Below, piece after piece: positions 14,383 to 63,839 of a DNA stretch of 64,000 nt. The position numbers and the translations under genes were made by a program. Numbering within the stretch: the first letter of the stretch is position 1; every line of letters begins with the position of its first letter. Source of the stretch: a virus; the IMG/VR virus record IMGVR_UViG_3300019886_000067, positions 1 to 64,000 of that record, one strand, 5' to 3'. The notes beneath the pieces were generated by a model, which had not been told where the DNA came from, ran no database searches, and was given only the letters and a program-made list of their open reading frames with translations.

Positions 14383-15014
14383 GGGTCTATACACGGGTAA
14401 AGCCCGATGTCGATAGAGTTCTTGACGCCGAACTACTATGTACGGTGTGCGATGAATGGCAGCCCAAGGATGAGTTCTACACAAGGAAAGGCGGCGGTAG
14501 GACCAAAAACGCCTCTGAGAAATATAGTCATCGCTGCAAGGACTGTCAGAAACTTTATCATGGGCTGAGTGCTATAAACGGAGCGTGTCCTACAGTCACG
14601 CAGATGCGTGAGAGCCTGAACAGAGGGGCATACAGCATCGTCGCCTCGCTCAATCAAGCACGTCATCCGCAGCGCGAGATAACGCCTCTGTCTCCAGAGG
14701 AGTTGAAGCTGCGTCGTGAGCGCCAGGAAGCTAAAGAACTAGCGGCTGGCAAGCCCGACCTATGCTATCTCGTAGGTATGGAGGGTGATGATACGGCCGT
14801 GAAGATCGGACACAGCACCAATCCTCCTGCGCGTCTTGGCGAGTACCAGGCCGGCAACCCCAGGAAACTTACGGTGCTGGCGACTATAGACGGCGGTCAG
14901 CAGCGAGAGCGCGAGCTTCACCAGCGCTTCATCCGTAATCATCAGGATTGGATGGTTGGTGAGTGGTTCGCCAAGGACCCTGCAATCCTGAACGAGTTCA
15001 AAGTTACTATATGA
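14379..15014 (+). CDS. GIY-YIG (T5orf172/MUG113-like) nuclease with N-terminal Zn finger
   Basis: CTVC..CKDC; VKIGHS..RLGEYQAGNP..ERELHQRF..GEWF. Confidence 0.88.
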   Translation: MRVYTRVKPDVDRVLDAELLCTVCDEWQPKDEFYTRKGGGRTKNASEKYSHRCKDCQKLYHGLSAINGACPTVTQMRESLNRGAYSIVASLNQARHPQREITPLSPEELKLRRERQEAKELAAGKPDLCYLVGMEGDDTAVKIGHSTNPPARLGEYQAGNPRKLTVLATIDGGQQRERELHQRFIRNHQDWMVGEWFAKDPAILNEFKVTI

Positions 15015-20903: not shown

Positions 20904-21338
20904 ATGATTGATCCGTGTATGTACCTCTTCGTAAACCGTGGCCTGTGGATGTCTCCTGGGAAGATTGCGGCGCAGGCTGCTCATGCAGCCGTCGAGGCGT
21001 ACCGCATTTCTGACCAGGAAAGCAACATCTTCCGGCTGTGGTATCGAGGCGGTCACTACAAGAAGATTGTCCTGCTCGGGAGAGACGAGAACCATATGCG
21101 CAACATCGAGGCATATCTTACCGCTCGGGACATTCCTTTGGTAACTATCATTGATGAGGGACATACAGAGATTGCGCCGCTAAGTATCACTGCTATCGGC
21201 TGCGCTGTGCTCGACAAGGCACACGCAAACAACGCGGCGATCTTCTCTACGTTTGAGCTTTACAAGGATGAGCCGCCGCCTAAGAAAGACAATCGCTCTC
21301 CTTGGCAGAAGTTCAAAGACTTTCTAAGCGAAAGCTGA
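20904..21338 (+). CDS. pth2: Peptidyl-tRNA hydrolase type 2
   Basis: MSPGKIAAQAAHA, KKIVL, IIDEGHTEI motifs. Confidence 0.93.
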   Translation: MIDPCMYLFVNRGLWMSPGKIAAQAAHAAVEAYRISDQESNIFRLWYRGGHYKKIVLLGRDENHMRNIEAYLTARDIPLVTIIDEGHTEIAPLSITAIGCAVLDKAHANNAAIFSTFELYKDEPPPKKDNRSPWQKFKDFLSES

Positions 21339-27861: not shown

Positions 27862-30726
27862 CTAAATCCAGGCGTTGCGCCATTCCACAATAGCGCTCAT
27901 ACTTTCGGCTTTCAATTGTGCCACAATCTCAATCCTATTTTCCCCAGGCACTAGCCCAAACCATTCAGTAGCAGCAAAGTTGACCGAGCCATAGATAGAG
28001 CCGGTAGCCGTTGATACCGTCCGGTTTAGCGTGTCAATAACGCCGGTAAATGTAGGTTCTGTCAGACTAATTGTGTTCACTGTGCCTGTGAGAGCATTAA
28101 TCCATGTGGCGTTAGACGCGCTAACGAATATGCCTCGTGGTTCAGCTTGTCCAGCAACCCATTCATTTTCTACTTCCGTGCCAGTTATTGTAGAGCGGCC
28201 TATGGTGCCGCTGGCAGTATTAGTCCAGTAAATATGTCCAGCATCTACAGCTATACTAGTAGCTTTAGTCCCAGAAACGATTGTTTTAGGGCTGGCTCCG
28301 CTGAGAAGAGATTCCTTGATTTCTCCTGTAGTAGTAGCCCACCATAGTTTTGTGGCTGTTACAAGAATCCCTGAGCCTTTGAGCATATTAGCGCCGGCAA
28401 TGATTGTTGTTTTTTCAGTTCCAGTTAGGGTCGTCCTGTTGATGTTGGTTCTGTCCCCATAGAATAGATTTGATTCATTCGCGGCTATGCCAAAGATTTC
28501 TTCTGGCAAAGTTGCAGTAAACACAAATTCATCAGAGAAAAAGCCCTTTAGGGTTGAGTGAACACTGTAGTTGCCTCCCCCTGGGTTGTTGAAGCAGACA
28601 TACATCTTAGTCCCATTTGCTGCTAGACCTGACGGAACAGCAGGCGTGAGGCTATTCCATGTGTTATTTAGTCCTGTTCCATTTATGCCTATCTTACCAA
28701 AAGCAATTGAGTTGTATGTGTACCAAAATGTGCTGCCGTCGTTTGCTACATAGGAGACGCCGCTGGACAAACCTCCCGCAAGCTGAATAGACAATGCTGG
28801 GTTGTAGTTGATAACAACCTGTTGTTTGGTTGTGGCATTGACTACTTCAAAGTTACGTGGTTTGCCTGTAAATATTATTAGCGGGTAAGTGATAACACTA
28901 CCTGTATTAGTAACTACCTTATACCCTGTGATTGGCACAGAGGAGATCGTACCTTCATTGAAGTTCGTAATAAAGAGGGTAGCTGTTTCGCCTGTTCCAG
29001 TGATCGCACTTCCATATGGGCCGGCCGCGCCAGAGTTGATGAAGTCTTCCATTATGTTTTCGCCATTAAGGTCAGCCCGTCTTACCTGACCACCTGCGTA
29101 GCAGCACCAATAGATATTTGTGGCACTAACGCAAGGATAAGCGGGTTCATTGCCTCCTTTAGAGATCCAAGAGTTTTCTATGCTTGCTCCGGCTATTGTG
29201 GCACGCCCAATCAAGCCATTTTTACGATCAGCCCAATATATATGCCCAGCATCAACACAAATACCGGATACATTGTTGAGCGGAAACAACCAGTTAGCTT
29301 CGATAGTGCCGCCGGCAACCGTCATGCGGCCGATAGCAAATTCCTTGGCCCAATAAATATGACCTGCGTCAACTGCAATACCTGCGCCGCCGGTAGTTAC
29401 AGCCTGCCACACACTTTCGATTGTTCCTCCCGCAACTGTGCAGCGACCTATGCCTTTTGTGCTGTTCCAATAGACGTGACCAGCATCTACAGCAACCCCA
29501 TTAGAGGATTCAGCTATAGTGACCCATTTAGGTTCAACGGAACCTCCTGAAATGGTAGCCCGACCAATGAAAGCTTCTCCCGAGCACCAATAAACATGCA
29601 CGCCATCTGTGGCAACTGCCTTGGGATGTATACCAGTGGAAAGTAGTTGCTGAACAATAGCCGGAAAAACATTTGCGCTCTGAGCGGTAGTGCCATAGAG
29701 ACGAGGATCGGCCGCTACCATCAAAAGCTGAAAGCTCTTAGACCATCCACCTGTAATACGGCAAGCCTGTTGACGGCGTACTTTCACAAACTGTCGTTCT
29801 CCGCCGGCCGGTGTCCATTCCAGCGTGGCATCTTCGCGCATGGCATTTGAAGCCTGAAGCAGTTTGGTGATCTTGATGTTACGATCTTCATTGCTGGTGA
29901 CGTTGTATATCGTGCCAGAAAGAGTAATCGGGCGACGACCGTGGAAGAAACTTCCATGAACACCACCGTCCATGCCTGTGATGTTCTCCGCGTTCTCGCG
30001 CACTTCCGGCGAATCAAGTCCAGTAGCTTCCGTGATAGAGCCAACGAAGTTAGGATCGAATGGGTCGTTGAACGTCGCAATAGTTCCGTCCGGGCCGGTG
30101 AGCGTGTACTTGGTCGAAAGCTGAGGACCGGACGGCAGAATAGCCCCAGGATGGTTAAGCCTGTTCCAGAAGTTTGTAGCAGACTTTCCAGCAGCGCCGG
30201 CCCATTCGTATCCCTCAACATCACCATCTACATAACTTTCAGTGGCGCTAACAGCAGTAAAGATTATTTTCAGTGCAGCAGGCGTAACAGGAGTACGAAT
30301 TGTAAAAAAGGCTGTTCCTGTTTTAGTCGGTGTCAGCGTAACAAAGCGACGATTCCAACCTAGAGCAGTCTGCGTCCATGCAACAAGGTTATTGCCTACA
30401 ACGCTAGAACCAAGACCCGCTTCAAGTTTATGCCCGGCAATTTCTTCATACACCGAGAACCATACAGTGATCGGAATTCCTTCTACAACAGGAATTTCTT
30501 CGATCATTGTTCCTTCAAATGTAGCTGTGCCGGCAGTCGTTATGTTGCAATAGCTTGTTAGGCCAAAAATACTTGCAGACTGGCTATACCCAGGAATTTG
30601 CTGCACCAAAGTGGTTGCTCCCAAGTTGACGAAGAAAGATGATGTGGTGCGCCAGCCAAACGCAGACGTAGCCCCATTGCCGTCATGCGAGAATCCTGGG
30701 TTTATGATTGGGTTTACAGCGGCCAT
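27862..30726 (-). CDS. Distal tail protein with CBM-like N-terminus and inserted beta-propeller repeats
   Basis: GRRPITLSG, AADPRLYG, LVPGENRI Dit motifs; repeated AVDAGHIYW blades. Confidence 0.8.
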   Translation of the reverse strand: MAAVNPIINPGFSHDGNGATSAFGWRTTSSFFVNLGATTLVQQIPGYSQSASIFGLTSYCNITTAGTATFEGTMIEEIPVVEGIPITVWFSVYEEIAGHKLEAGLGSSVVGNNLVAWTQTALGWNRRFVTLTPTKTGTAFFTIRTPVTPAALKIIFTAVSATESYVDGDVEGYEWAGAAGKSATNFWNRLNHPGAILPSGPQLSTKYTLTGPDGTIATFNDPFDPNFVGSITEATGLDSPEVRENAENITGMDGGVHGSFFHGRRPITLSGTIYNVTSNEDRNIKITKLLQASNAMREDATLEWTPAGGERQFVKVRRQQACRITGGWSKSFQLLMVAADPRLYGTTAQSANVFPAIVQQLLSTGIHPKAVATDGVHVYWCSGEAFIGRATISGGSVEPKWVTIAESSNGVAVDAGHVYWNSTKGIGRCTVAGGTIESVWQAVTTGGAGIAVDAGHIYWAKEFAIGRMTVAGGTIEANWLFPLNNVSGICVDAGHIYWADRKNGLIGRATIAGASIENSWISKGGNEPAYPCVSATNIYWCCYAGGQVRRADLNGENIMEDFINSGAAGPYGSAITGTGETATLFITNFNEGTISSVPITGYKVVTNTGSVITYPLIIFTGKPRNFEVVNATTKQQVVINYNPALSIQLAGGLSSGVSYVANDGSTFWYTYNSIAFGKIGINGTGLNNTWNSLTPAVPSGLAANGTKMYVCFNNPGGGNYSVHSTLKGFFSDEFVFTATLPEEIFGIAANESNLFYGDRTNINRTTLTGTEKTTIIAGANMLKGSGILVTATKLWWATTTGEIKESLLSGASPKTIVSGTKATSIAVDAGHIYWTNTASGTIGRSTITGTEVENEWVAGQAEPRGIFVSASNATWINALTGTVNTISLTEPTFTGVIDTLNRTVSTATGSIYGSVNFAATEWFGLVPGENRIEIVAQLKAESMSAIVEWRNAWI

Positions 30727-52142: not shown

Positions 52143-52163
52143 AAGCGGGGTGATTCCTACAAG

Positions 52164-52239
52164 TACGGCGAACGAGAATCGAACTCGCATTATCCACGCT
52201 GAGAACGTGGGGTCCTAGTCCTAGTTAGACGACCGCCGC
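52164..52239 (-). tRNA. tRNA-Glu(CTC)
   Basis: Cloverleaf; anticodon arm CCACG-TTCTCAG-CGTGG. Confidence 0.92.
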
Positions 52240-52242
52240 GTA

Positions 52243-52314
52243 TAGCAGACCGAGGATTCGCGCCTCGCTCCCAGGCTTATGAGGCCCGGATGGTCACTAG
52301 ACCACCTGTCTGCA
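52243..52314 (-). tRNA. Atypical tRNA-Met(CAT), initiator-like 1:72 mismatch
   Basis: CGGGC-CTCATAA-GCCTG; T-loop CGCGAAT. Confidence 0.7.
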
Positions 52315-52315
52315 A

Positions 52316-52387
52316 AGTCCCTGTCGGGATTCGAACCCGAACCATTCGCTTAGGAGGCAAACGCGCTATCCATTACGCCACAAGGAC
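52316..52387 (-). tRNA. tRNA-Arg(CCT)
   Basis: Cloverleaf; loop CTCCTAA. Confidence 0.9.
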
Positions 52388-52390
52388 ATA

Positions 52391-52459
52391 TCTCCCTACT
52401 GAGAATCGAACTCAGCCTAACAGATTAGAAGTCCGCCGTCCCGATCCACGGGCAAGGAG
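52391..52459 (-). tRNA. tRNA-Arg(TCT), compact D arm
   Basis: GCGGA-CTTCTAA-TCTGT; 69 nt. Confidence 0.8.
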
Positions 52460-52463
52460 TAAG

Positions 52464-52532
52464 TCCCAAGAGCAGGATTCGAACCTGCACCGCGCGGCTT
52501 ATGAGTCCGCCGTGTCACCTAGACATCCTGGG
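52464..52532 (-). tRNA. tRNA-Met/Ile2(CAT), compact D arm
   Basis: Loop CTCATAA; canonical T arm; 69 nt. Confidence 0.8.
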
Positions 52533-52537
52533 TAGAG

Positions 52538-52606
52538 CGGGGAAGCAACGAATCGAACGCTGGCCTGCGGGTTTGGAATCCGCTTGGTCTCCATGACCTC
52601 TTCCCC
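52538..52606 (-). tRNA. tRNA-Trp(CCA)
   Basis: GCGGA-TTCCAAA-CCCGC; 69 nt. Confidence 0.85.
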
Positions 52607-52653
52607 TGGTTTCGTGTGCCCACCCACTATCGGGGGTAACACGACACACGAAA

Positions 52654-52729
52654 GGGTGTCTGACGGGATTCGAACCCGCATCGAACCGGATCACAACCGG
52701 CGGACTTAACCACTTAGACCACAGACACC
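52654..52729 (-). tRNA. tRNA-His(GTG)
   Basis: Loop TTGTGAT; G-1:C73. Confidence 0.92.
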
Positions 52730-52734
52730 GTGTA

Positions 52735-52803
52735 TCCCCTTACTGAGAGTCGAACTCAGCACTCAGGCTTCGGAGGCCCGAGACACGATCCGCGTGTAAG
52801 GAG
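52735..52803 (-). tRNA. tRNA-Arg(CCG), compact D arm
   Basis: CGGGC-CTCCGAA-GCCTG; 69 nt. Confidence 0.8.
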
Positions 52804-52864
52804 TTGTCACTAGTGGGCTCGCGGGAAGCCCTTTATGAGGGACCTATCTCCCTCGCTAGTGTAG

Positions 52865-52939
52865 CGCTGATGATGGGACTCGAACCCACGACATTCCGCT
52901 CGACAGGCGGACGCTCTGACCAAACTGAGCTACATCAGC
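52865..52939 (-). tRNA. tRNA-Asp(GTC)
   Basis: Canonical cloverleaf. Confidence 0.95.
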
Positions 52940-52945
52940 GTAAAG

Positions 52946-53019
52946 CCTCCCCGACAGGATTCGAACCTGTAACCTCTGGTTTCGTAGACCAGCGCGCTAT
53001 CCAATTACGCTACGGAGAG
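52946..53019 (-). tRNA. tRNA-Arg(ACG)
   Basis: Canonical cloverleaf. Confidence 0.95.
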
Positions 53020-53022
53020 TTA

Positions 53023-53106
53023 TGCGAGTGGTGGGAGTCGAACCCACATGGCCCTTCGGCCGGCGCGGTTTGAACGCACTGCGTATCCCAATTCCACCAC
53101 ACTCGC
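53023..53106 (-). tRNA. tRNA-Leu(CAA)
   Basis: Long variable arm; GTGCG-TTCAAAC-CGCGC. Confidence 0.9.
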
Positions 53107-53109
53107 GTA

Positions 53110-53192
53110 TACGTTCGGAGGGAGTCGAACCCTCAATCCCGATGGGCACTGGCTTCTAAGACCAGCGTGTATACCAATTCCACCACGAACGC
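53110..53192 (-). tRNA. tRNA-Leu(TAG)
   Basis: Long variable arm; loop CTTAGAA. Confidence 0.92.
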
Positions 53193-53195
53193 TCA

Positions 53196-53278
53196 TGCGA
53201 TTGACAAGAGTCGAACTTGCACATTCCGAAGAACACTGCCTCCTCAAGGCAGGGCGTCTACCATTCCGCCACAATCGC
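53196..53278 (-). tRNA. tRNA-Leu(GAG)
   Basis: Long variable arm; loop TTGAGGA. Confidence 0.92.
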
Positions 53279-53284
53279 TTAAAG

Positions 53285-53358
53285 TCAGGATGGCTGGATT
53301 TGAACCAGCGGCTTCCTCCGTCCGAGGGAGGCACGCTACCAGGCTGCGTCACATCCTG
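53285..53358 (-). tRNA. tRNA-Pro(CGG)
   Basis: Cloverleaf; C1. Confidence 0.92.
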
Positions 53359-53363
53359 TTGAG

Positions 53364-53438
53364 TCGGGATAGAAGGATTTGAACCTTCGGCTTCACCGCC
53401 CCAAACGGCGCGCTCTGACCAGACTGAGCTATATCCCG
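53364..53438 (-). tRNA. tRNA-Pro(TGG)
   Basis: Canonical cloverleaf. Confidence 0.95.
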
Positions 53439-53444
53439 AAAAAG

Positions 53445-53517
53445 CTCTTGCGCTAGGATTCGAACCTAGACCTAACGGGTTAACAGCCCGTCGTGCTGCC
53501 GTTGACACCACGCAAGA
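53445..53517 (-). tRNA. tRNA-Asn(GTT)
   Basis: ACGGG-CTGTTAA-CCCGT. Confidence 0.93.
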
Positions 53518-53523
53518 TCGAAG

Positions 53524-53595
53524 CTGGGGAGGTAGGATTCGAACCTACATCGGGCCGGGTCAGAGCCGTCCATCTTGCCATTAGACCACTCCCCA
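53524..53595 (-). tRNA. tRNA-Gln(CTG)
   Basis: Cloverleaf; U1-A72. Confidence 0.92.
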
Positions 53596-53600
53596 GGGTA

Positions 53601-53672
53601 ATGCGGAGGCTGGATTCGAACCAGCATCGAATGGGTTCAAGGCCCACCATCATGCCGTTAGACCACTCCGCA
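53601..53672 (-). tRNA. tRNA-Gln(TTG) with C33
   Basis: GTGGG-CCTTGAA-CCCAT. Confidence 0.88.
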
Positions 53673-53846
53673 GCAGAAAGAACAACATAGCACATCTTCG
53701 TGCCAAAGGTCGGGTCGTCCGGTCCCAATTCGGGATGGAACCGGACGACCGTCGCAAGAGTGCGCTCTCTGGGCTAGCTCTCCAACCCTACGCGCACCAG
53801 GAACGCAACTAATGGGCTGTACGTGCTCTAGGCGTCTCTGCCGAAG

Positions 53847-53898
53847 ACTGTAGCAGATTCTTTGCGGTGTTGCACGTCAAGCGAATCTGTGGTACGGT
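53847..53898. promoter_or_regulatory. Divergent promoters: TGC-TACAGT (-, tRNA array 1) and TTGCAC-N17-TACGGT-N6-ATG (+, cca, leaderless)
   Basis: Hexamers and spacings read directly. Confidence 0.7.
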
Positions 53899-53904
53899 TC
53901 CCCC

Positions 53905-55347
53905 ATGAAGACAACTCCCGATCAGTTCATGGCGAGCCTTGGCTTGCCAGAGGTATATCGCGTTGGAGGTTCAGTCCGAGACGAAGTTCTCGGCCGGCGC
54001 TCCAAAGACTCCGACTATATGGTTCGGGGCTCCACGCTTAATGAGATTAGGTCGGCTGTCGGGCGCGCGGGTGCTAAGCCGAGCAAGCTCAAGCTACGCA
54101 CAGGTGTTGAGGTAGGTGTACGGGCCGCAGTCAAGGGGCTCGGCTTGCTTGAGATTGTTCTGCCGCGCACAGAGCGCTCAACTGGACCCGGCCGGCACGA
54201 TTTCGAGATTCATTGTTCGCCTGATATCCGACTTGAGGAAGATGCTCTTCGTCGTGACTTCAAAATGAATGCGATCTACCTCAACATCGCTTCTCAGCAC
54301 TATGTTGATCCGCTTGGTGGGCTTGATGATATAAAACGTAAACTCATCAACACCACACATGCTGATTCCTTCAAGGAAGACCCGCTTCGCACGCTTCGAG
54401 CGCTGCGTTTCTGTTCTACGTTGCCAGGATTTTGTCTGTCAGGAACTACACACAACCAAATGTGCGACCATGCGCCGGCCGTAACTGGTCTGACGACGAA
54501 AGGTGTCTCTGCTACCGCATTTGATGAGCTTTGCAAGCTGCTCATGGGCAGTCGGCCAAGCTTGGCGCTGGAATTGATGGCCGAAACAGGCGTTATGGCG
54601 GTTTTCCTGCCTGAGCTTGTGCCAATGCTTGACTTCGAGCAGCGTTCGCGCTACCACGAGAAGACAACAAGCAAGCACACGTTCGATGCTGTGCAGGCGG
54701 CGGCTAATATGCACCAACACGCGCCGCTTCGCGTACGTTTGGCACTACTTTTCCACGATTCCGGCAAGCCTTTGATGGCTTGGACAGGCGAGGACGGCCT
54801 TCAGCATTACTACGCGCTTGATCCAAAGCGAGCAGTAGAGCTAAATGCACCAATCGCCGCACTTGAATCACACGAGGCATGGGGCGTCAAGCAAGCGCAC
54901 GCTGCTCTAACGCGCCTTGGCGCTCCAAAGAAGCTACGCCAAGACGTTGAAACACTGATTGCGCGCCATATGTTGCCGCTGCATGAGAACTTTAGGCCGA
55001 TCAAGGTACGCAAGTTGCGTGCAGAGCTTGGCGACGAGCTTTTGCGTGACCTAATCACGCATCGGCTGGCTGATGTGCTCGGCAAGGGCGGTGACACAAC
55101 GGCCGCTGTAGAAGTTCTGACGTGGATTGCCAACGAGCAAGACAGGGCCATCGCCGGCCATGTGCCGCTAAGTCCGAAGGAACTTGATATAAGTGGCCGT
55201 GAACTTGTTGCGCTAGGTTTGAACGGCCGCGAAATCGGACGCGTGCAGAAGCAGCTACTACACGAGGTACTTGCTCAGCCTAAGCTCAACACAAACGAGT
55301 GGCTTGTCAATCGAGCCAAGGTCATACGCCACAAGGATATGAAATGA
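53905..55347 (+). CDS. cca: CCA-adding tRNA nucleotidyltransferase with HD domain
   Basis: VGGSVRD..DSD, EDALRRDF.MNA, EDPLRTLRALRF, LFHDSGK. Confidence 0.93.
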   Translation: MKTTPDQFMASLGLPEVYRVGGSVRDEVLGRRSKDSDYMVRGSTLNEIRSAVGRAGAKPSKLKLRTGVEVGVRAAVKGLGLLEIVLPRTERSTGPGRHDFEIHCSPDIRLEEDALRRDFKMNAIYLNIASQHYVDPLGGLDDIKRKLINTTHADSFKEDPLRTLRALRFCSTLPGFCLSGTTHNQMCDHAPAVTGLTTKGVSATAFDELCKLLMGSRPSLALELMAETGVMAVFLPELVPMLDFEQRSRYHEKTTSKHTFDAVQAAANMHQHAPLRVRLALLFHDSGKPLMAWTGEDGLQHYYALDPKRAVELNAPIAALESHEAWGVKQAHAALTRLGAPKKLRQDVETLIARHMLPLHENFRPIKVRKLRAELGDELLRDLITHRLADVLGKGGDTTAAVEVLTWIANEQDRAIAGHVPLSPKELDISGRELVALGLNGREIGRVQKQLLHEVLAQPKLNTNEWLVNRAKVIRHKDMK

Positions 55348-55547
55348 GCGCTCCGATTTATCCTCCGTGGACGAAGAAGTACAAGCTAAGCTACCTTGGC
55401 TTCAATAACTACGAGGTAATAGAGGAGTCATCAAAAGACATACTCGCGGTCGGTCCTTTGGAGTATGGCGAGGCACAAGACATTGCTGATCGCGCCAATT
55501 CCGAACTCACAGCCGAACGTGTCAAGAACAGAAACAAGGCCAAATGA
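55344..55547 (+). CDS. Hypothetical protein
   Basis: ATGA overlap with cca. Confidence 0.65.
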   Translation: MSAPIYPPWTKKYKLSYLGFNNYEVIEESSKDILAVGPLEYGEAQDIADRANSELTAERVKNRNKAK

Positions 55548-55719
55548 TAAATCTGGCCTTTGTCTGCGCCGGCCTGCTGGGTGTTTTGATGTTCATGTGT
55601 CTCGCGCACGAACGCGAGCTTGAGCGTGAAGAGTGCCCACATCTTAATTGCCGCGAATTTGGAAGCTCCTACAATATCACTATCTGTTTTTGCCCAGATT
55701 GCGGAAAGGTAGACCTACT

Positions 55720-56163
55720 ATGATCCTGCGTAACCAAGCCATATGTACGCTGTGTGGCGACCACATCAAGTCGATACACAAACATGATTTCAAATCTTGT
55801 TTATGTGGAGCGCTATCAGTTGACGGCGGCACTGAGTATCTGCGCCGGCTCGGCAACCCAGGAGAGTACAGAGACACGTCTATTTGTATTCCCGAGCAGC
55901 TTCCGATCAAGGAGGCCGCAAAGTATCTCGGCGTCGTAGTGGCGCTGGGAGATACGGCCGTTGCAGGAACTTCGTGGCTAGAAGGCCAGTTGATAGGTCA
56001 GTTCAAGACTAAGCCTTGGTTCAAGCCGCCGAAGGACAAACGACAACTACTCAAGTGGTGTCGGAAGCTCGTGGAATGGGAGTTGGTTGATGAGCTTACG
56101 ACTAAGGGCGACGCTCAGTGCTATTGGAAATCCAAAGTCGAGCTAGCTACTTGGACTGATTAA
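55720..56163 (+). CDS. Zn-finger phage protein
   Basis: NQAICTLCGDHIKS..HDFKSCLCG..SVDGG motif. Confidence 0.8.
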   Translation: MILRNQAICTLCGDHIKSIHKHDFKSCLCGALSVDGGTEYLRRLGNPGEYRDTSICIPEQLPIKEAAKYLGVVVALGDTAVAGTSWLEGQLIGQFKTKPWFKPPKDKRQLLKWCRKLVEWELVDELTTKGDAQCYWKSKVELATWTD

Positions 56164-56164
56164 T

Positions 56165-56231
56165 TATGCACGATCACGCAGATTAGATGATGTTCTCTTC
56201 GCCTAGAAGTAAATCTGCGTGATCGTGCATA
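56165..56231. repeat. 20-bp perfect inverted repeat between convergent genes
   Basis: TATGCACGATCACGCAGATT-N27-AATCTGCGTGATCGTGCATA. Confidence 0.9.
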
Positions 56232-56235
56232 CGAC

Positions 56236-56556
56236 TTAGTTAGTCTTGGTGACTACTCCGCCTGCCTGGGATTCCTGGGCAGCCAGCGGCAAAGGAGTGG
56301 CCTGCGCTGCTGCTGGTGCAGCCGGCGGAAAAGTAAGTTTCGCAAGCTCATTCTCAGACGTGTCGATACGGCTCTTGACCGTATCTAGGTAGCTCTCAAG
56401 CTGAGCGCTCTGAGAAGCAAGCGCGGAAAGCTGAGAAGTCGCACGAACGAACTCTGCCTTATGTGACTCAAGAAGTTGCTCGGCTGCTGCAATCTTGTGA
56501 GCTACAGTGCCCGGCACAAGCTTCTCGACAAAGTTCAATGCGTCAGAGATATTCAT
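56236..56556 (-). CDS. Coiled-coil hypothetical protein
   Basis: GAAGGA RBS; downstream of tRNA array 2. Confidence 0.7.
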   Translation of the reverse strand: MNISDALNFVEKLVPGTVAHKIAAAEQLLESHKAEFVRATSQLSALASQSAQLESYLDTVKSRIDTSENELAKLTFPPAAPAAAQATPLPLAAQESQAGGVVTKTN

Positions 56557-56610
56557 TGGTACAGTGCATCCTTCCCGTGGTTTTGTAGTAGGAGAAGGAT
56601 ACCATTAGAG

Positions 56611-56696
56611 CGGAAGGAGTGGGACTCGAACCCACACGCCGGCTCACGCCGACCTCAGCACTTTCCAGGCGCAGTACCGCTCCTTTGGGTCCTTCC
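56611..56696 (-). tRNA. tRNA-Ser(GGA), weak D arm
   Basis: Loop CTGGAAA; long variable arm. Confidence 0.85.
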
Positions 56697-56704
56697 GAAA
56701 GAGA

Positions 56705-56775
56705 AGAGCACGGTTGGATTCGAACCAACGTGAGACGGGTTGCAACCGCCGGCTTCGCCCCTCAGCCACGCACTC
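56705..56775 (-). tRNA. tRNA-Cys(GCA)
   Basis: Loop TTGCAAC; U73. Confidence 0.92.
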
Positions 56776-56850
56776 ATAAGCGGGATGCACTTTGGCGCGC
56801 TCCCGAGTGCGCCTCGCTCTAGACGGCCGCAACCGACGAGCGATACTAAG

Positions 56851-56939
56851 CGGTAGGTCAGGGATTCGAACCCTGGGAACACCATTAGATGTTCGCTGGT
56901 TTAGCAAACCAGTCCATTCGGCCGCTCTGGCAACCTACC
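56851..56939 (-). tRNA. tRNA-Ser(GCT)
   Basis: CTGGT-TTGCTAA-ACCAG; long variable arm. Confidence 0.94.
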
Positions 56940-56945
56940 GGAAAG

Positions 56946-57028
56946 CGGAGGGTAAGCGAATCGAACACTCACGCGGTTAGTCGTGCCCTGGGTTTCGAAT
57001 CCAGTTTGCCGCCTTGGCGGTACCCTCC
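56946..57028 (-). tRNA. tRNA-Ser(CGA), atypical D arm
   Basis: Loop TTCGAAA; long variable arm. Confidence 0.82.
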
Positions 57029-57032
57029 GAAA

Positions 57033-57112
57033 TGGAAACGTGAGGAATCGAACCTCATAGTACGAGACAGCGGGGTTACAGCCCACTTGGCGGTCCCAGC
57101 GCCAACGTTTCC
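57033..57112 (-). tRNA. tRNA-Tyr(GTA)
   Basis: GTGGG-CTGTAAC-CCCGC. Confidence 0.9.
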
Positions 57113-57174
57113 GAACGAAGAAGGACTATAGCATACGCTCGACACATTCGCGCCAGATGTGGTACAGTTCTTCC

Positions 57175-57384
57175 ATGAGCAACGTACAGGCCCTAGTAGG
57201 CAAGCCACTCACATTCTACGCCCGAGGCAAGAAGCGCAACATAGGCACGATCACGGATGTATCTGTCGTAGACAACGGCGTCCGATTCGCCGCAACCGTG
57301 ACTGACAGCGAGGTAGCCAAGCTTCTAGGCGTTGATCCTCCTGTTGAGATAAGCGGTGGTGCTGGCGATGTCTCAAGCACCTAA
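57175..57384 (+). CDS. Hypothetical protein
   Basis: TGG-TACAGT-N6-ATG. Confidence 0.7.
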   Translation: MSNVQALVGKPLTFYARGKKRNIGTITDVSVVDNGVRFAATVTDSEVAKLLGVDPPVEISGGAGDVSST

Positions 57385-57979
57385 ACTTGATCCTGCAAGT
57401 ACGTGGCTTGTATCTGACACGCACTTTGGGCACGAAAACATCGTCGGCTTCGCCCGCCGCCCGCACGACCATGAGCAAGTCATTATGGAGGAATGGGCAC
57501 AAACTGTTCCCGACGACGGAACGGTACTGCATCTAGGCGACTTGTCTTATAGAAATAACTCGTTCTTCAAGAACATGATCGCCAAGCACTTGACTGGCGC
57601 TCAGAAGCTCTTGATCCAAGGCAACCATGATCGTCAGCGGCCGAACTTCTATCGTGATAGCGGCTTCAAGATCGTTAAGCCTTTTGAGATTCGCTATGTC
57701 ACGCCGAAGGCTGGTGTCTGGACAGTCTCGTTCTCTCACTATCCCCTAAAGAAGTCAGCACATCCGCTTGCATCAGCAGGCGGCCTAAGACGCGTTCATA
57801 TACACGGCCACATTCACAATAACGGGTATGGCGGCAAGAATTCTCCGTTTGTTCCGTTCAGCGCAGGGCAAATCAACATCAGCGTTGAGCAGATGCACTA
57901 TCGCCCCTGCAAACTAGACGACCTTCTCAACGGCTACATAGAAGGTTGCTACGAGCCTCCGAAGGTCGAGGACAAGTGA
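57368..57979 (+). CDS. Calcineurin-like metallophosphoesterase
   Basis: SDTHFGH, HLGD, GNHD, SHYP, HGHIH. Confidence 0.93.
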   Translation: MSQAPKLDPASTWLVSDTHFGHENIVGFARRPHDHEQVIMEEWAQTVPDDGTVLHLGDLSYRNNSFFKNMIAKHLTGAQKLLIQGNHDRQRPNFYRDSGFKIVKPFEIRYVTPKAGVWTVSFSHYPLKKSAHPLASAGGLRRVHIHGHIHNNGYGGKNSPFVPFSAGQINISVEQMHYRPCKLDDLLNGYIEGCYEPPKVEDK

Positions 57980-58326
57980 ACCTGCCGCCGCTCTATCATT
58001 GGTCGCCCAGCGAGCGCCGCGTCGAAATACTGCAAGATGGGCTCAAGGTGTTCTCTGAGCCAGTCGTTCATGGAGCCGGCCGCGCTCCGTATCTGTGCTT
58101 TGGAACGTGCCCGCGCCAAGCATGGAGTCTATCTGGCGATTTGGATTGGGTGTCAGAAAAAGAGGAATGGGACCTCTGGCAAATCATCCTCTCAAAAGAC
58201 GATGATGTGCATATCAGGATGGAGAGTGGCACATATATTTACGAGGTACGAACGTTCAACTCAATTCCGGCTGATCGTGTGTGGCTTGTTGCGCAACGTG
58301 AGCCGGCGGTCTTCATCGAGCGGTAG
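57976..58326 (+). CDS. Putative ADP-ribosyltransferase/Tpt1(KptA)-like fold protein
   Basis: LYHWS...ILQDGLK..YLCF..IPADRV resembles ART-fold H-S/T motif proteins. Confidence 0.5.
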   Translation: MNLPPLYHWSPSERRVEILQDGLKVFSEPVVHGAGRAPYLCFGTCPRQAWSLSGDLDWVSEKEEWDLWQIILSKDDDVHIRMESGTYIYEVRTFNSIPADRVWLVAQREPAVFIER

Positions 58327-58404
58327 AATGGACAGAATACTTGCGTTTGCGCTACCTTTTTGCCCATACTGCAACTACATCCCGAGCTTCAAGTAACCGC
58401 TGCT

Positions 58405-58734
58405 ATGCCCCGCGAAAAAGTTCTGACTGTTCGTATTTCTGATTGTGAGATTCAGACGTTCAAAGCCACCGGCAAAGGTGGGCAGAACCGAGACAAACGC
58501 GATACGGCCGTTCGTATAATCCACCATCAGTCCGGGGCGCGTGGTGAATCACGTGAAGAGCGTGACCAGCTTTCCAACAAGCGCAAAGCCTTTGTCCGCA
58601 TGGCGAACTCAAAGGCATTCAAGGACTGGCTTACAAGAGAGCATAGCCGTCGTATAGCCGACGTAGATGCCTGGCTTGATGAGCAGATGAAGCCAGAGAA
58701 CCTTGATGTTGAGTATGGCTCGGATACCAACTAG
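58405..58734 (+). CDS. Stand-alone RF-1 (GGQ) domain peptidyl-tRNA hydrolase, ArfB/PrfH-like
   Basis: TFKATGKGGQNRDKRDTAVRIIH..SREERDQLSNKRKAF. Confidence 0.9.
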   Translation: MPREKVLTVRISDCEIQTFKATGKGGQNRDKRDTAVRIIHHQSGARGESREERDQLSNKRKAFVRMANSKAFKDWLTREHSRRIADVDAWLDEQMKPENLDVEYGSDTN

Positions 58735-58975
58735 CTCAAACAACATGCGTGTGTTTAGCGAAGCGCACAAACACAATAACCACTGGCTAGTTGAAGCTGA
58801 ATGGCACGGCAAAATGCGGATTGTCCACAGTGGCCTTGACATCTACGCTGTACTTCGCTGGGCGACCCAGCATGGCTACCACGAGAAAAGCCCTGCCTAA
58901 AAGAGCAATTCTGCAACATAGTTGCAACAAAGCTAAATTAGACAGGACCGCAATGGACACCCGTCTTTCCAACGA

Positions 58976-59048
58976 TGCAACCTGTAGGAATCGAACCTAC
59001 GACGCCCGGCTTTTCAGGCCGGCGCTCTACCGTCTGAGCTAAGGTTGC
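58976..59048 (-). tRNA. tRNA-Phe(GAA)
   Basis: Canonical cloverleaf. Confidence 0.95.
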
Positions 59049-59053
59049 TTGTA

Positions 59054-59125
59054 AGCGCGTGACGAGATTCGAACTCGTTCTTCTTGGTTGGAAGCCAAGT
59101 GTGCCGCCATGAACACTTCACACGC
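59054..59125 (-). tRNA. tRNA-Gly(TCC)
   Basis: CTTGG-CTTCCAA-CCAAG. Confidence 0.92.
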
Positions 59126-59200
59126 GAAAGGCCGGGCTCTCACCGGACTACAAGCGACCACGCTTGCCTTATGGGTCGGTACTTCCCGACAGTAACTTAA

Positions 59201-59272
59201 AGCTCTCACCGAGAATCGAACTCGATACTGACGATTACGAAACGTCCGTGTCACCAACAACACCTTGAGAGC
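59201..59272 (-). tRNA. tRNA-Thr(CGT)
   Basis: Loop TTCGTAA. Confidence 0.9.
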
Positions 59273-59275
59273 ACA

Positions 59276-59342
59276 AGCCCCATATCGGAATCGAACCGAT
59301 TCTAGCTGATTACAAAACAGCCGCCAGACCATCAGATAGGGC
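59276..59342 (-). tRNA. tRNA-Thr(TGT), reduced D arm
   Basis: Loop TTTGTAA; 67 nt. Confidence 0.8.
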
Positions 59343-59431
59343 GTATCCACAGGCTGCCTACTTCTCCTGCTAAGAGGGTCGGCATTTAAAAGGATGTCCA
59401 AAGCAATAAGGACAAGCATTCACCTGTTAGA

Positions 59432-59503
59432 AGCTGATGACGAGAGTCGAACTCGTAACCCCTCCCATACCAAGGGAGTGCTATACCGTTAAGCCACACC
59501 AGC
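59432..59503 (-). tRNA. tRNA-Thr(GGT)
   Basis: CTCCC-TTGGTAT-GGGAG. Confidence 0.93.
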
Positions 59504-59584
59504 GGGCGTGGCGCTCTAACCAGATTTGAGCTACACCCGAGCAAAGCTCGCGCGGTGGGCTTCGATCCCACAACCTCCACTAAG
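59504..59584 (-). ncRNA. Circularly permuted, anticodon-less tRNA-like RNA
   Basis: Order is T arm, acceptor stem closed by a TTT loop, then D arm; ends GTGG/CCAC pair. Confidence 0.8.
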
Positions 59585-59657
59585 TACCCCCGCAAGGAAT
59601 CGAACCTTGTTCGCTGGCTTAAGAGGCCAGTGCTCATCCTGTTAAAGCTTCGGAGGC
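59585..59657 (-). tRNA. tRNA-Lys(CTT)
   Basis: CTGGC-CTCTTAA-GCCAG. Confidence 0.92.
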
Positions 59658-59663
59658 TTGTAG

Positions 59664-59755
59664 TGCGCCTGATGGGACTCGAACCCACATCCGTTGGTGT
59701 GAAAAACCAATGCTGGGGACAACTCAGTTGCCTCTACCATTTCAGCTACAGACGC
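59664..59755 (-). tRNA. tRNA-Glu(TTC) with hairpin insertion in the D loop
   Basis: TTGGT-TTTTCAC-ACCAA; 92 nt. Confidence 0.8.
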
Positions 59756-59761
59756 TTAAAG

Positions 59762-59835
59762 TGCCCCCTCTGGGATTCGAACCCAGTTCTCACCGCTTAA
59801 AAGGCGGGGTTCTAACACACATGAACTAAGGAGGC
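59762..59835 (-). tRNA. tRNA-Lys(TTT)
   Basis: Loop CTTTTAA. Confidence 0.92.
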
Positions 59836-59840
59836 GTGCA

Positions 59841-59913
59841 AGCAACAGACGGGATTCGAACCCGCAACCTTCGACATGGCAAGCCGACGCACTACCGAAC
59901 GTGCTCCTGTTGC
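59841..59913 (-). tRNA. tRNA-Gly(GCC)
   Basis: TCGGC-TTGCCAT-GTCGA. Confidence 0.92.
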
Positions 59914-59918
59914 GTAAG

Positions 59919-59992
59919 TACGCCCCCAAGGATTTGAACCTTGAACCAACACCTTATAAGGATGCTGCTCTAACCAATTGAGCTAGAGGCGC
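59919..59992 (-). tRNA. tRNA-Ile(TAT)
   Basis: GCATC-CTTATAA-GGTGT; canonical D and T arms. Confidence 0.9.
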
Positions 59993-59997
59993 GAGAG

Positions 59998-60072
59998 TGG
60001 ATCGAGAAGGATTTGAACCTTCGACAGTTCGCGTATCAGACGAATGCTCTAACCTGACTGAGCTACCGATCC
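59998..60072 (-). tRNA. tRNA-Ile(GAT)
   Basis: Loop CTGATAC. Confidence 0.93.
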
Positions 60073-60077
60073 ATGAG

Positions 60078-60151
60078 TGGACAATCTCGGACTCGAACCG
60101 AGGACTTCCGCCTTGTAAAAGCGGCGCTCTAACCAACTGAGCTAATCGTCC
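60078..60151 (-). tRNA. tRNA-Val(TAC)
   Basis: Loop TTTACAA. Confidence 0.94.
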
Positions 60152-60155
60152 ATAA

Positions 60156-60224
60156 ACGGGAAGGCTGGACTCGGACCAGCATCTACCGGCCCCACGCCGG
60201 CCGCTCTAATTGAGCTACCTCCCT
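60156..60224 (-). tRNA. Degenerate tRNA-like gene (Pro TGG-like loop CGTGGGG)
   Basis: All stems pair, but no U33, no D-loop GG, T loop TCCGAGT and a 1:72 mismatch. Confidence 0.6.
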
Positions 60225-60226
60225 AG

Positions 60227-60299
60227 TGGTCAATGCTGGACTCGAACCAGCGACTTCGGCGATGTCACCGCCGCGCTCTCCCAACTGAGCTAATCGACC
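60227..60299 (-). tRNA. tRNA-Val(GAC)
   Basis: CGGCG-GTGACAT-CGCCG. Confidence 0.92.
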
Positions 60300-60305
60300 A
60301 AGAAG

Positions 60306-60378
60306 TGGAGAAGATGGGATTCGAACCCACGACATCCTGCTTGCAAAACAGGCGCTCTACCAACTGAGCTACATCCCC
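60306..60378 (-). tRNA. tRNA-Ala(TGC)
   Basis: G3:U70; canonical. Confidence 0.95.
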
Positions 60379-62617: not shown

Positions 62618-62655
62618 TCACCAATTCTGCCACAGCAACCGGCTTTCAGCCGTGC

Positions 62656-62704
62656 GACAATATCGTCACATACGCCCGATTCGAACGAATGTGACGATAT
62701 TGTC
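62656..62704. terminator. 16-bp perfect inverted repeat directly 3' of the RNase P RNA
   Basis: GACAATATCGTCACAT-N17-ATGTGACGATATTGTC. Confidence 0.7.
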
Positions 62705-62710
62705 ACAAAT

Positions 62711-63064
62711 GGGGTCCAGCCTGTAGCCGGGGTTCTGTTCCCAGGACGACAAACCCCTGGGCGACCACGATCTTTCTTACCGGGCTGACTAATTCCCGGC
62801 AGCCGTCCTATGACGTGCCGCTCCAAACCTTGATCGCCCCCGCTATGCTTCGGGCGTCTGTTCTTGGATCGCACCCAGCCTTGGCAACTCGCGCGTGCGC
62901 GCGTCTCGCGGTTCAAGCGTCCCGTGCTACTGTCCGCATCGCTCTCGCAACTTGGCCCCAACAAGGACTCCCGCCGGCCGGTGACGACGAGGTTAGCCCT
63001 CGTCGGGGTGCCCCGAACTTCCTCTCGCGTCCTTCAACCGCGAGCCGCAGTCCGGCTGGCCCAC
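62711..63064 (-). ncRNA. rnpB: RNase P RNA (type A-like)
   Basis: CR-I GAGGAAGTTCGGGGCAC, CR-V AACAGAACCCCGGCTAC; P1, P2, P3, P4, P5/P7, P8, P18 and P19 pair. Confidence 0.92.
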
Positions 63065-63068
63065 TAAA

Positions 63069-63180
63069 ACGAAGAGAGGGATTCGAGCCCTCTACTGCCA
63101 ACATCGCAGCCACCATACCTTGCTCCGCTCCGAAGGTTTCTGTACTTGGAGTCGTTAGACGATAATCCGTGTTGAAACCT
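63069..63180 (-). ncRNA. Unassigned structured RNA: hairpin plus D-stem-less tRNA mimic
   Basis: AGGTTTC/GAAACCT stem; GCGGAG/CTTCGT acceptor-like stem; AGAGGG-CTCGAAT-CCCTCT T arm. Confidence 0.55.
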
Positions 63181-63187
63181 ACAAACA

Positions 63188-63267
63188 TGGAGAAGGAGGG
63201 ATTCGAACCCTCGTCTTACCGCTGCGCCATTAGCGCGTTACACGGCAATCGACACCAAGCCTTCCCC
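63188..63267 (-). ncRNA. ssrA: Minimal tmRNA (tRNA-like domain only)
   Basis: GGGGAAG/CTTCTCC-A with G3:U; stemless D loop ending TCGA; P2 TTGCCG/CGGTAA; GAC; GAGGG-TTCGAAT-CCCTC. Confidence 0.85.
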
Positions 63268-63275
63268 GTCTTCAA

Positions 63276-63284
63276 ACCATATCA
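63276..63284 (-). promoter_or_regulatory. Extended -10 (TG-A-TATGGT) 8 nt upstream of the mini-tmRNA
   Basis: Same TGn-TAnnnT form as the boxes in front of the three tRNA arrays. Confidence 0.6.
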
Positions 63285-63455
63285 CGTATAGCGCTCCGGC
63301 GTCTTGGTCGGCCCAAGCAGCCATATCAAGAACTTGTAAAGCAGGTAGAGCCCAATCGCAACACCCAGCACTTCGCCTAGCGCCACGGCCGTTCCTTCGC
63401 CGCCGCCGGACGCGAATCCAACAACTATCAGTAGCAATGCGATAAGAAGTATCAT
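63282..63455 (-). CDS. 57-aa two-TM membrane protein (MILLIALLLIVVGF...)
   Basis: Translated by hand; leaderless after TTGACA-N17-TAGGGT-N6-ATG. Confidence 0.7.
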   Translation of the reverse strand: MILLIALLLIVVGFASGGGEGTAVALGEVLGVAIGLYLLYKFLIWLLGPTKTPERYT

Positions 63456-63516: not shown

Positions 63517-63726
63517 TCATTTCTTCAGGACGTTCAGGTAGAAGCGAGCACGGGCGGCGTTCTTGCCTTTGCCTTTAGCGATGGCACGGACTTTGGCTTG
63601 ATTGACCTTGCCGTTCTTGTTGACGCCGGCCGCTTTGCGAAGCGCACCATTCGATTTGACCTTGAGTGGCTTGCGCTTCTTGGCTGCCGAGCGCTTCCGG
63701 GTCGTTTTCCTCCGGGCCTTAGCCAT
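63517..63726 (-). CDS. 69-aa Lys/Arg-rich protein
   Basis: GALRKAAGV..KV.AIAKG..AARARF pattern; TGATG-coupled. Confidence 0.75.
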   Translation of the reverse strand: MAKARRKTTRKRSAAKKRKPLKVKSNGALRKAAGVNKNGKVNQAKVRAIAKGKGKNAARARFYLNVLKK

Positions 63727-63839
63727 CAGGACACTAGTCCGATCACAAGGCCAATCACGAATCCCACAAAGCCACTCAGGCCGATCAGTTCAAGGTCGTA
63801 GCGTCTCCGTGCTCGTTGGATTGCGGGTATCTGAATCAT
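63726..63839 (-). CDS. 37-aa membrane peptide
   Basis: Translated by hand; ATGA and TGATG overlaps. Confidence 0.6.
   Translation of the reverse strand: MIQIPAIQRARRRYDLELIGLSGFVGFVIGLVIGLVS

Follow-up and report, generated by a model that had tools for sequence, protein, structure and literature searches.

The first 64 kb (hereafter the window) of the 80,397-bp IMG/VR virus record IMGVR_UViG_3300019886_000067 carries, at positions 63188-63267 of the minus strand, what sequence analysis confirms as a real mini-tmRNA gene, which would encode the tRNA-like domain (TLD) of a transfer-messenger RNA (tmRNA) without its coding domain. This RNA probably interferes with, or bypasses, the rescue-and-tag system of the host. 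Bacteria rescue ribosomes and control protein quality chiefly by trans-translation, which is also a drug target. If our reading is true, a widespread natural phage RNA acting via SmpB would be a ready-made antagonist or bypass of trans-translation, and phages would routinely manipulate rescue and tagging. The contig originates from a soil metagenome, has an estimated completeness of ~66% and bears phage genes for a portal protein and a ribonucleotide reductase. Its portal is less than 30% identical to that of any cultured phage, and neither this comparison nor a blastn search of 50,697 phage records with the locus, which had no match, gave a close cultured relative.

The gene is composed of the following parts, all on the minus strand and listed from the 5′ end of the RNA after the gene itself.

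63188-63267, minus: whole mini-tmRNA (TLD-only) gene, 80 nt, from G1 at 63267 to the discriminator A at 63188.
63261-63267, minus: 5′ strand of the acceptor stem, GGGGAAG; by direct reading, G3 (63265) pairs with the U at 63191.
63249-63260, minus: stemless D-loop analogue GCUUGGUGUCGA with the tmRNA signature GG..UCGA, aligned by Rfam to the consensus uGGaUUCGA; columns invariant in the family described below.
63242-63248, minus: 5′ strand of helix P2, UUGCCGU; covariation at 7 of 7 P2 pairs in the family.
63223-63241, minus: central cap in place of the mRNA-like domain, with a predicted fold of an A-rich bulge GUAAC, a 4-bp hairpin GCGC-UAAUG-GCGC and an A.
63216-63222, minus: 3′ strand of the 7-bp P2, GCGGUAA, from the family model and covariation.
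63213-63215, minus: GAC linker 5′ of the T arm, which fits the tmRNA consensus GGAC; conservation of its A across the family is 90% or more.
63196-63212, minus: T arm GAGGG-UUCGAAU-CCCUC; the T stem is 100% paired in the family and 3 of its 5 pairs covary.
63188-63195, minus: 3′ strand of the acceptor stem, CUUCUCC, and discriminator A, by direct reading.

The letters are exactly those quoted in an earlier note on this DNA, which had read them as a tmRNA stripped to its TLD. The acceptor stem GGGGAAG/CUUCUCC comprises 7 bp with a G3:U pair, and no CCA is encoded, UGU following the discriminator A. The Rfam tmRNA model RF00023 aligns end to end (model positions 1-374) with 63185-63267 of the minus strand at 44.6 bits (E 5.8e-16). 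The aligned parts are the ends of the model, 1-26 and 337-374, and the 310 central positions are reduced to 19 nt. Pseudoknots PK1-PK4 are absent from the element in this alignment, and the ~19-20 nt between the P2 strands hold no mRNA-like domain (resume codon, tag frame or stop), nor does ARAGORN report a tag. Because 19 nt replace 310 model positions, the RNA cannot add a degradation tag. A hidden short tag, in the 6-codon frame GCG CUA AUG GCG CAG CGG UAA, was rejected because the hairpin and the P2 helix enclose this frame and an orthologue (contig L335, see below) does not preserve it. A two-piece (permuted) tmRNA was also rejected: both acceptor strands lie within one 80-nt gene and no separate coding piece was found. 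Neither the window nor the other 16 kb of the contig showed any further tmRNA piece, whatever its form, and the alpha, beta and cyanobacterial tmRNA models gave no hit at the Rfam gathering threshold in the window or at E≤0.01 in the rest; since the contig is ~66% complete, this does not prove their absence from the whole phage genome.

The element does not resemble an ordinary tRNA. It has no D stem and no anticodon arm with a 7-nt loop, the cloverleaf model RF00005 gives no hit at the Rfam gathering threshold, and the fold is that of P2 plus a mini-hairpin. ARAGORN calls it neither tRNA nor tmRNA. In blastn searches with the 80 nt, matches are confined to the T arm and the acceptor end and are to tRNA-Ala genes or tmRNA 3′ ends. 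Contigs from a second soil sample carry an identical element and thus offer no sequence variation to compare.

Such variation is provided by a family of phage RNAs. We scanned IMG/VR with the pattern GGGG-N6-8-GG-NN-TCGA-N15-45-GGTTCGANTCC, which describes a TLD with a short middle, and obtained at least 120 loci; the counts over 120 loci given below apply to the matches listed. A covariance model built from 30 sequences (R1) served to align 93 hits in 100 loci, and a second model (R2) was rebuilt from this 93-sequence alignment, which comes from other viral contigs and excludes the window element. On the window, R2 assigns the element 68.5 bits (E 7e-15), the next best score being 24.5 bits for a tRNA-Ala, with the other tRNAs no higher; the phage tRNA-Ala likewise reaches only 25.2 bits on RF00023. 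In the 93 sequences, which make 77 distinct rows, standard pairs fill 98.1% of cells, versus 65% for shuffled sequences and 38-58% when the partners are slid, in an alignment that was itself fitted to the structure of the model. The covariation score over the distinct rows is 0.79, compared with 0.15 for shuffles and at most 0.09 for slid controls, with double changes at 7 of 7 P2 pairs, four acceptor pairs and three T-stem pairs. The GGGG, GG..TCGA and T-loop columns are uninformative, because the pattern fixed them and the alignment was fitted to structure.

Two alanine identity elements, U70 and A73, lie outside the search pattern. Of the 120 loci, 108 passed a TLD filter that asked for an intact T stem and for six or all of the 7 acceptor pairs; a U stands opposite G3 in all 108 and the discriminator is A in 106. 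Pair 3 is G:U in 76 of 76 distinct rows, and elsewhere in the acceptor stem G:U is rare. The near invariance of G3:U and of the discriminator A, neither of which the pattern demands at U70 or A73, suggests that selection acts on charging of the RNA.

The family of TLD-only tmRNAs defined in this way is large, conserved and almost entirely unannotated in phages. The same pattern applied to 596 Gb of bacterial and archaeal genomes yielded at least 120 matches, and of the 120 listed only 12 pass the filter, which points to a strong enrichment of the element in viruses. When the scan was narrowed to the subtype of the window, it found 37 IMG/VR contigs, 14 of them already among the first 120 loci, and from this overlap a crude capture-recapture calculation puts the strict pattern in ~300 IMG/VR contigs. 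Lengths peak at 79-80 nt, and CCA is encoded at 31 of the filtered loci. The central segment usually measures 16-19 nt and consists of an A-rich 5′ bulge of 4-6 nt, a hairpin of 3-4 bp, often with a tetraloop, and 1-3 nt on the 3′ side; in a minor class P2 is closed by a loop of 2-6 nt. The window element, with its 80 nt, matches the modal length and has a typical major form of the cap. Most members reside in 40-60-kb phages that have neither tRNA arrays nor an RNase P-like RNA, and tRNAs lie near only 33 of the 120 loci. Clustering of the neighbouring proteins of these loci revealed no conserved protein partner, in line with an autonomous RNA.

We found no paper on the breadth of this family, and current tools handle it poorly. 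The Rfam tmRNA cut-off falls in the middle of the range of the family's scores. At four loci (L017, L052, L079 and L109) ARAGORN fuses the 3′ end of the mini-tmRNA with an unrelated upstream stretch into a 320-400-nt 'tmRNA' with an implausible tag, and annotation pipelines may thus mislabel mini-tmRNAs as full tmRNAs. A fifth ARAGORN tmRNA call, in L096, lies away from the pattern hit. The 'tmRNA' annotations of crAss-like phages and of Mycobacterium phage Nanosmite score only 27-30 bits on R2 and are not members of the family.

Two related viral contigs were found through the CCA-adding enzyme of the phage (~46-49% identity), one designated G036 (identical to L333) and the other L335, and searches through the adjacent Ig-domain protein and a GGQ protein gave no relatives. 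In both contigs the order of tRNA genes is that of the window and the mini-tmRNA heads the array. The copy in L335 is 80 nt long and scores 71.4 bits on R2 and 61.5 bits on the Rfam tmRNA model, above the cut-off. That in G036 is 59 nt long, scores 55 bits on R2 and has a cap reduced to a 3-nt loop; as this form lacks the central hairpin, the latter is dispensable. Between the window element and these two syntenic relatives, compensatory changes occur in every helix; in the comparison with L335 they affect the acceptor stem, P2, the central hairpin and the T stem, with GUAAC and G3:U/A73 unchanged. Synteny and compensatory change together indicate that, in this lineage, the position of the gene is conserved and purifying selection acts on it. 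As a side observation, a tRNA-like element lies directly 5′ of the G036 mini-tmRNA (1252-1325); it scores 30.6 bits on the mini-tmRNA model, and ARAGORN reports it as an unusual tRNA-Pro of 97 nt. This element may be either an aberrant tRNA or another, degenerate TLD.

These data bear on the notion that the element is non-functional, being an aberrant tRNA-Ala, a decayed tmRNA pseudogene or an attP copy of the end of a host ssrA gene. Such an origin would agree with the missing ARAGORN call, with an acceptor 3′ strand identical to that of the phage tRNA-Ala, and with an RF00023 score that falls 2.4 bits short of the gathering score of 47, a shortfall that also weighs against our main reading. 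On the other hand, the element lacks a D stem and an anticodon arm, tRNAs reach at most 24.5 bits on R2 where it reaches 68.5, and two diverged relatives retain it, with compensatory changes; decay is ruled out by the covariation seen throughout the family. An attP or integration site was rejected in view of the tyrosine integrase gene, present in only 8 of 34 carriers, and of the two TLD ends, which are both present, unlike in attP fragments. We consider this reading largely refuted and barely credible. The TLD-only identity put forward in the earlier note is thus borne out by Rfam scoring, by the independent R2 model, by covariation in 77 distinct members and by a shared family membership with a published phage RNA (see below). 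The checks that the note had suggested gave an end-to-end alignment to RF00023 (44.6 bits), no ARAGORN call and no match to the mitochondrial model RF02544; a better fit as an ordinary tRNA and a separate coding piece on the contig, which it had listed as grounds for doubt, were not found.

The published RNA is that of mycobacteriophage DS6A, which Hudson, Lau and Williams (PMC4131195) list as having a 'TLD only' tmRNA and which is entered as a tmRNA without coding sequence (CDS-less) in the tmRNA Website (tmID 11587; see also PMC11915505). The reduced phage example to which the earlier note alluded corresponds to DS6A. We located the DS6A element at 28478-28557 of its genome, where it is unannotated in the GenBank record, and it scores 61 bits on R2. 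It shares with the window RNA the length of 80 nt, the G3:U acceptor stem, the GG..UCGA D-loop analogue, P2, the discriminator A, the A-rich bulge with a small hairpin and, 5′ of the T arm, a short linker (GAC in the window). Each of the two is carried by a phage without SmpB. They differ in sequence outside the conserved core and in setting: DS6A is a 60.6-kb temperate mycobacteriophage in which the RNA stands alone between protein genes, whereas the window RNA, from a soil phage that exceeds 80 kb and has no cultured relatives, heads an operon with an RNase P-like RNA and 33 tRNAs. Inhibition has been assayed for the DS6A-type molecule, and the window RNA is known from its sequence. Since one model, R2, recognises both, the window element is of the same kind as the DS6A 'TLD only' tmRNA and is, by these sequence features, an additional member of the published type. 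The literature searched names DS6A as the one phage example, which the present data expand into a large conserved family; one particular contribution of this case is positional conservation beside a divergent RNase P-like RNA within a phage lineage.

Comparison with other tmRNAs delimits the reduction. The window RNA has in common with canonical SsrA a complete TLD, with the alanine identity elements as well as those D-loop and P2 features that face SmpB, and the resume codon, tag frame, stop codon and pseudoknots belong to SsrA only. Full-length phage tmRNAs are described in PMC4131195 for Bxz1-type mycobacteriophages and Bacillus phage G, and we observed one in contig L168 (see below). These are likewise phage-borne ssrA-type genes, often accompanied by tRNA arrays, but they retain the tag frame and pseudoknots, so that tagging is possible. 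The tmRNAs of jakobid mitochondria (RF02544) and Mallomonadaceae plastids, which lack the mRNA-like domain, resemble the window RNA in being TLD-only and presumed to work with SmpB without tagging; those of Mallomonadaceae are given as ~65 bp in PMC11915505. The likeness to mitochondrial forms noted earlier thus holds for the TLD-only architecture and not at the level of the model, as RF02544 has no match at E≤10 in the whole contig, and for this reason the phage RNA is an independent reduction.

We propose a mechanism in which the mini-tmRNA captures host SmpB and competes with host tmRNA, thereby suppressing trans-translation, and we favour it with moderate confidence. The RNA would be co-transcribed with the RNA genes downstream of it and would acquire its ends by tRNA-type processing and CCA addition, for which a phage enzyme is at hand. 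The invariant identity elements G3:U and A73 would then permit alanylation by the host alanyl-tRNA synthetase, and the tmRNA-specific D-loop, P2 and GAC features would permit binding of host SmpB, together with EF-Tu. The SmpB so bound would be that of the host, because no SmpB gene is present on this contig (~66% complete) or in 34 other larger mini-tmRNA viral contigs (14 of them at least 90% complete). Competition with host tmRNA for SmpB and stalled ribosomes would finally lead to less proteolysis tagging during infection. Published work supports this proposal: according to PMC4131195, which cites Mao et al. 2009, a TLD-only molecule strongly inhibits tmRNA, perhaps by titration of SmpB, and a DS6A-type molecule expressed in E. 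coli is reported to inhibit the endogenous tmRNA (PMC4131195, PMC11915505). Inhibition of host trans-translation would be the most likely effect here as well.

Some observations weigh against so simple a competition. The inhibition by TLD-only RNA is reportedly independent of chargeability (PMC4131195), and this, set beside the absolute conservation of G3:U/A73, suggests more than passive titration, such as ribosome entry or tag-free rescue; the conserved identity elements suggest that the charged RNA would go to the ribosome. Furthermore this phage, unlike most carriers, encodes both a GGQ hydrolase and a PTH2, a combination that fits rescue at least equally well. The genes in question, together with that of the CCA-adding enzyme, are:

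53905-55347, plus: CCA-adding enzyme inside the tRNA array, with a Pfam PolyA_pol head and RNA-binding domains; matches NCBIfam CCA tRNA nucleotidyltransferase models below cut-off.
58360-58734, plus: stand-alone GGQ (release-factor domain 3) protein, PF00472 at 51.7 bits, with the GGQ motif in the translation.
20904-21338, plus: PTH2-family peptidyl-tRNA hydrolase, PF01981 at 78.5 bits; NCBIfam Pth2 at 68.7 bits, below cut-off.

In tag-free rescue, the alanyl-TLD, with host SmpB and EF-Tu, would enter ribosomes stalled on broken mRNAs and accept the nascent chain, and the resulting peptidyl-TLD would be cleaved by a hydrolase either of the phage (GGQ protein or PTH2) or of the host (ArfB or Pth), so that ribosomes are recycled and the protein is left unmarked. 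The RNA would then belong to a self-supplied set for the maintenance of translation (33 tRNAs, the CCA-adding enzyme, the RNase P-like RNA, the GGQ protein and PTH2). We regard this, the main rival, as possible, although on the whole unlikely. The invariant alanine identity elements imply that charging and ribosome delivery matter, and PMC11915505 argues that CDS-less organellar tmRNAs co-occurring with SmpB help the cell to handle incomplete mRNAs. The GGQ protein is encoded inside the tRNA island, in addition to PTH2, and either enzyme is a possible candidate partner, the former as a peptidyl-TLD hydrolase. A GGQ open reading frame (ORF) also occurs in a complete, tRNA-rich 119-kb mini-tmRNA phage (G038), the only further case seen among tRNA-rich carriers. 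However, the sole published experiment reports tmRNA inhibition and not rescue. The GGQ protein (~110-124 aa) falls below every NCBIfam release factor, ArfB and PrfH cut-off, and its C-terminus is acidic. ArfB, by comparison, has a basic C-terminal tail. In the 34 other larger mini-tmRNA viral contigs, genes for RF-1/GGQ proteins and for PTH2 were each found in none, and when the GGQ, PTH2 and CCA proteins of the phage were compared with the 120 loci by tblastn, the single match was to a CCA enzyme. The phage hydrolases are therefore no general requirement, and host factors must normally suffice. Hence, of the earlier suggestion that the phage Pth2 or GGQ factor clears the peptidyl-TLD, the presence of both genes stands (PF01981 and PF00472 matches) and a general need for them does not. 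An SmpB sponge and tag-free rescue, both raised in that note, remain the two leading candidate mechanisms.

A narrower claim may be made for this lineage, that the mini-tmRNA is the RNA part of a virus-encoded tag-free rescue system in which the chain is released by the phage GGQ protein or PTH2 and which is co-produced with the RNase P-like ribozyme, 33 CCA-less tRNAs and the CCA-adding enzyme. We put this forward only tentatively, judging it rather improbable; if true, it would constitute a portable phage module for translation repair and rescue. Because the mini-tmRNA here co-occurs with a GGQ protein and PTH2, the lineage is suited to deciding between inhibition and tag-free rescue. GGQ protein and PTH2 are in any case unusual phage cargo.

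The RNA could also be imagined to act away from the ribosome, as a decoy for host defences or nucleases that recognise tmRNA, SmpB-type or tRNA-like RNA (for example SmpB-like domains or RNase R regulation). The SmpB-like domains of CoCoNuT restriction systems (PMC11090510) and the tmRNA fragments in an anti-CRISPR complex (PMC11662646) are circumstantial hints in this direction. Nothing at the locus or at the 120 listed family loci links the RNA to such systems, and the selection on alanine identity elements would be left unexplained; we hold a decoy role to be highly improbable.

Returning to the locus, the mini-tmRNA begins 15 nt past the stop of a small membrane-protein ORF (63282-63455, minus strand) and is followed on the same strand by a 124-nt structured spacer, the RNase P-like RNA, a long perfect hairpin, two ORFs and the tRNA array. 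The two elements nearest to its 3′ end are:

63064-63187, minus: structured spacer with a long hairpin and then a ~60-nt tRNA-like element bearing a second, degenerate T arm.
62708-63063, minus: divergent RNase P class-A-like RNA, RF00010 at 19.1 bits over the full model span.

A promoter scan found no sigma-70-type promoter upstream of the mini-tmRNA, and the terminator-like hits at the locus are T arms. All 33 tRNA genes lie on the minus strand (52163-60378) and none encodes CCA, the discriminator being usually followed by C-T, or by T; the phage CCA-adding enzyme is likely to supply the 3′ CCA to these tRNAs and to the mini-tmRNA.

This arrangement raises the question of whether the mini-tmRNA is a mere processing handle, its tRNA-like fold serving as a cleavage signal for RNase P (5′) and an RNase Z-type enzyme (3′) that frees the adjoining RNase P-like RNA and tRNAs from a polycistronic transcript, with no role in trans-translation. 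In the relatives the discriminator stands 2-4 nt ahead of the first helix of the RNase P-like RNA: in G036 this RNA (1391-1681; RF00010 32.4 bits) begins 4 nt past the mini-tmRNA and is followed by tRNA-Ala, Val, Val and the remainder of the array, and in L335 (~14735-15012) it begins 2-3 nt past and is followed by tRNA-Ala. In the window, it is another T-arm-bearing element that abuts the RNase P-like RNA. Against such a role, most family members occur in phages without tRNA arrays or RNase P-like RNA, and a handle has no need of the tmRNA-specific D-loop, P2 and GAC or of an invariant G3:U/A73, which makes it very improbable. The tRNA-like element of the spacer, for its part, may be a processing handle. 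It combines a stem GCGGAG/CUUCGU, a 5-bp hairpin with the loop GAUGUUG and a T arm AGAGGG-CUCGAAU-CCCUCU, in which a C occupies the T54 position; no tool calls it, and its folding energy is no better than that of shuffles (z -0.43).

It is worth noting some further features of the surroundings. The RNase P-like RNA is directly followed by an almost perfect inverted repeat of 57 nt (62652-62708), probably a processing hairpin or a terminator, which came to notice through spurious hits to miRNA families. Just upstream of the RNA operon, 63517-63726 (minus strand) encodes a 69-aa, extremely basic Lys/Arg/Ala-rich protein without a Pfam match, flanked by small hydrophobic ORFs at 63282-63455 and 63726-63839. 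The strand opposite to the tRNA genes also carries, within the array, a metallophosphoesterase (57356-57979) and a DUF7695 protein (55648-56163).

The RNase P-like RNA of the window shows the motifs CR-I GAGGAAGUUCGGGGC, CR-IV AGAAAGAU and CR-V ACAGAACCCCGGCUA, with a specificity domain that cannot be aligned, and its counterpart in L335 has a compensatory G-to-A/C-to-U change in P4. A viral scan for CR-I, 260-290 nt and CR-V returned 42 contigs (L148-L189) of 2-497 kb, many with the match within tRNA arrays of up to 26 genes. Scores of 48-280 bits for RNase P class A were obtained in 14 of the 17 loci searched with Rfam, and L166 has no RNase P hit at E≤1e-6. We found no paper on phage-encoded RNase P RNA in the literature. 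In one of these contigs, L168 (94 kb, IMG/VR), a single tRNA array contains a full-length tmRNA (Rfam 97 bits) together with an RNase P RNA (262 bits), so that both full and tag-less forms of tmRNA occur in such RNA islands.

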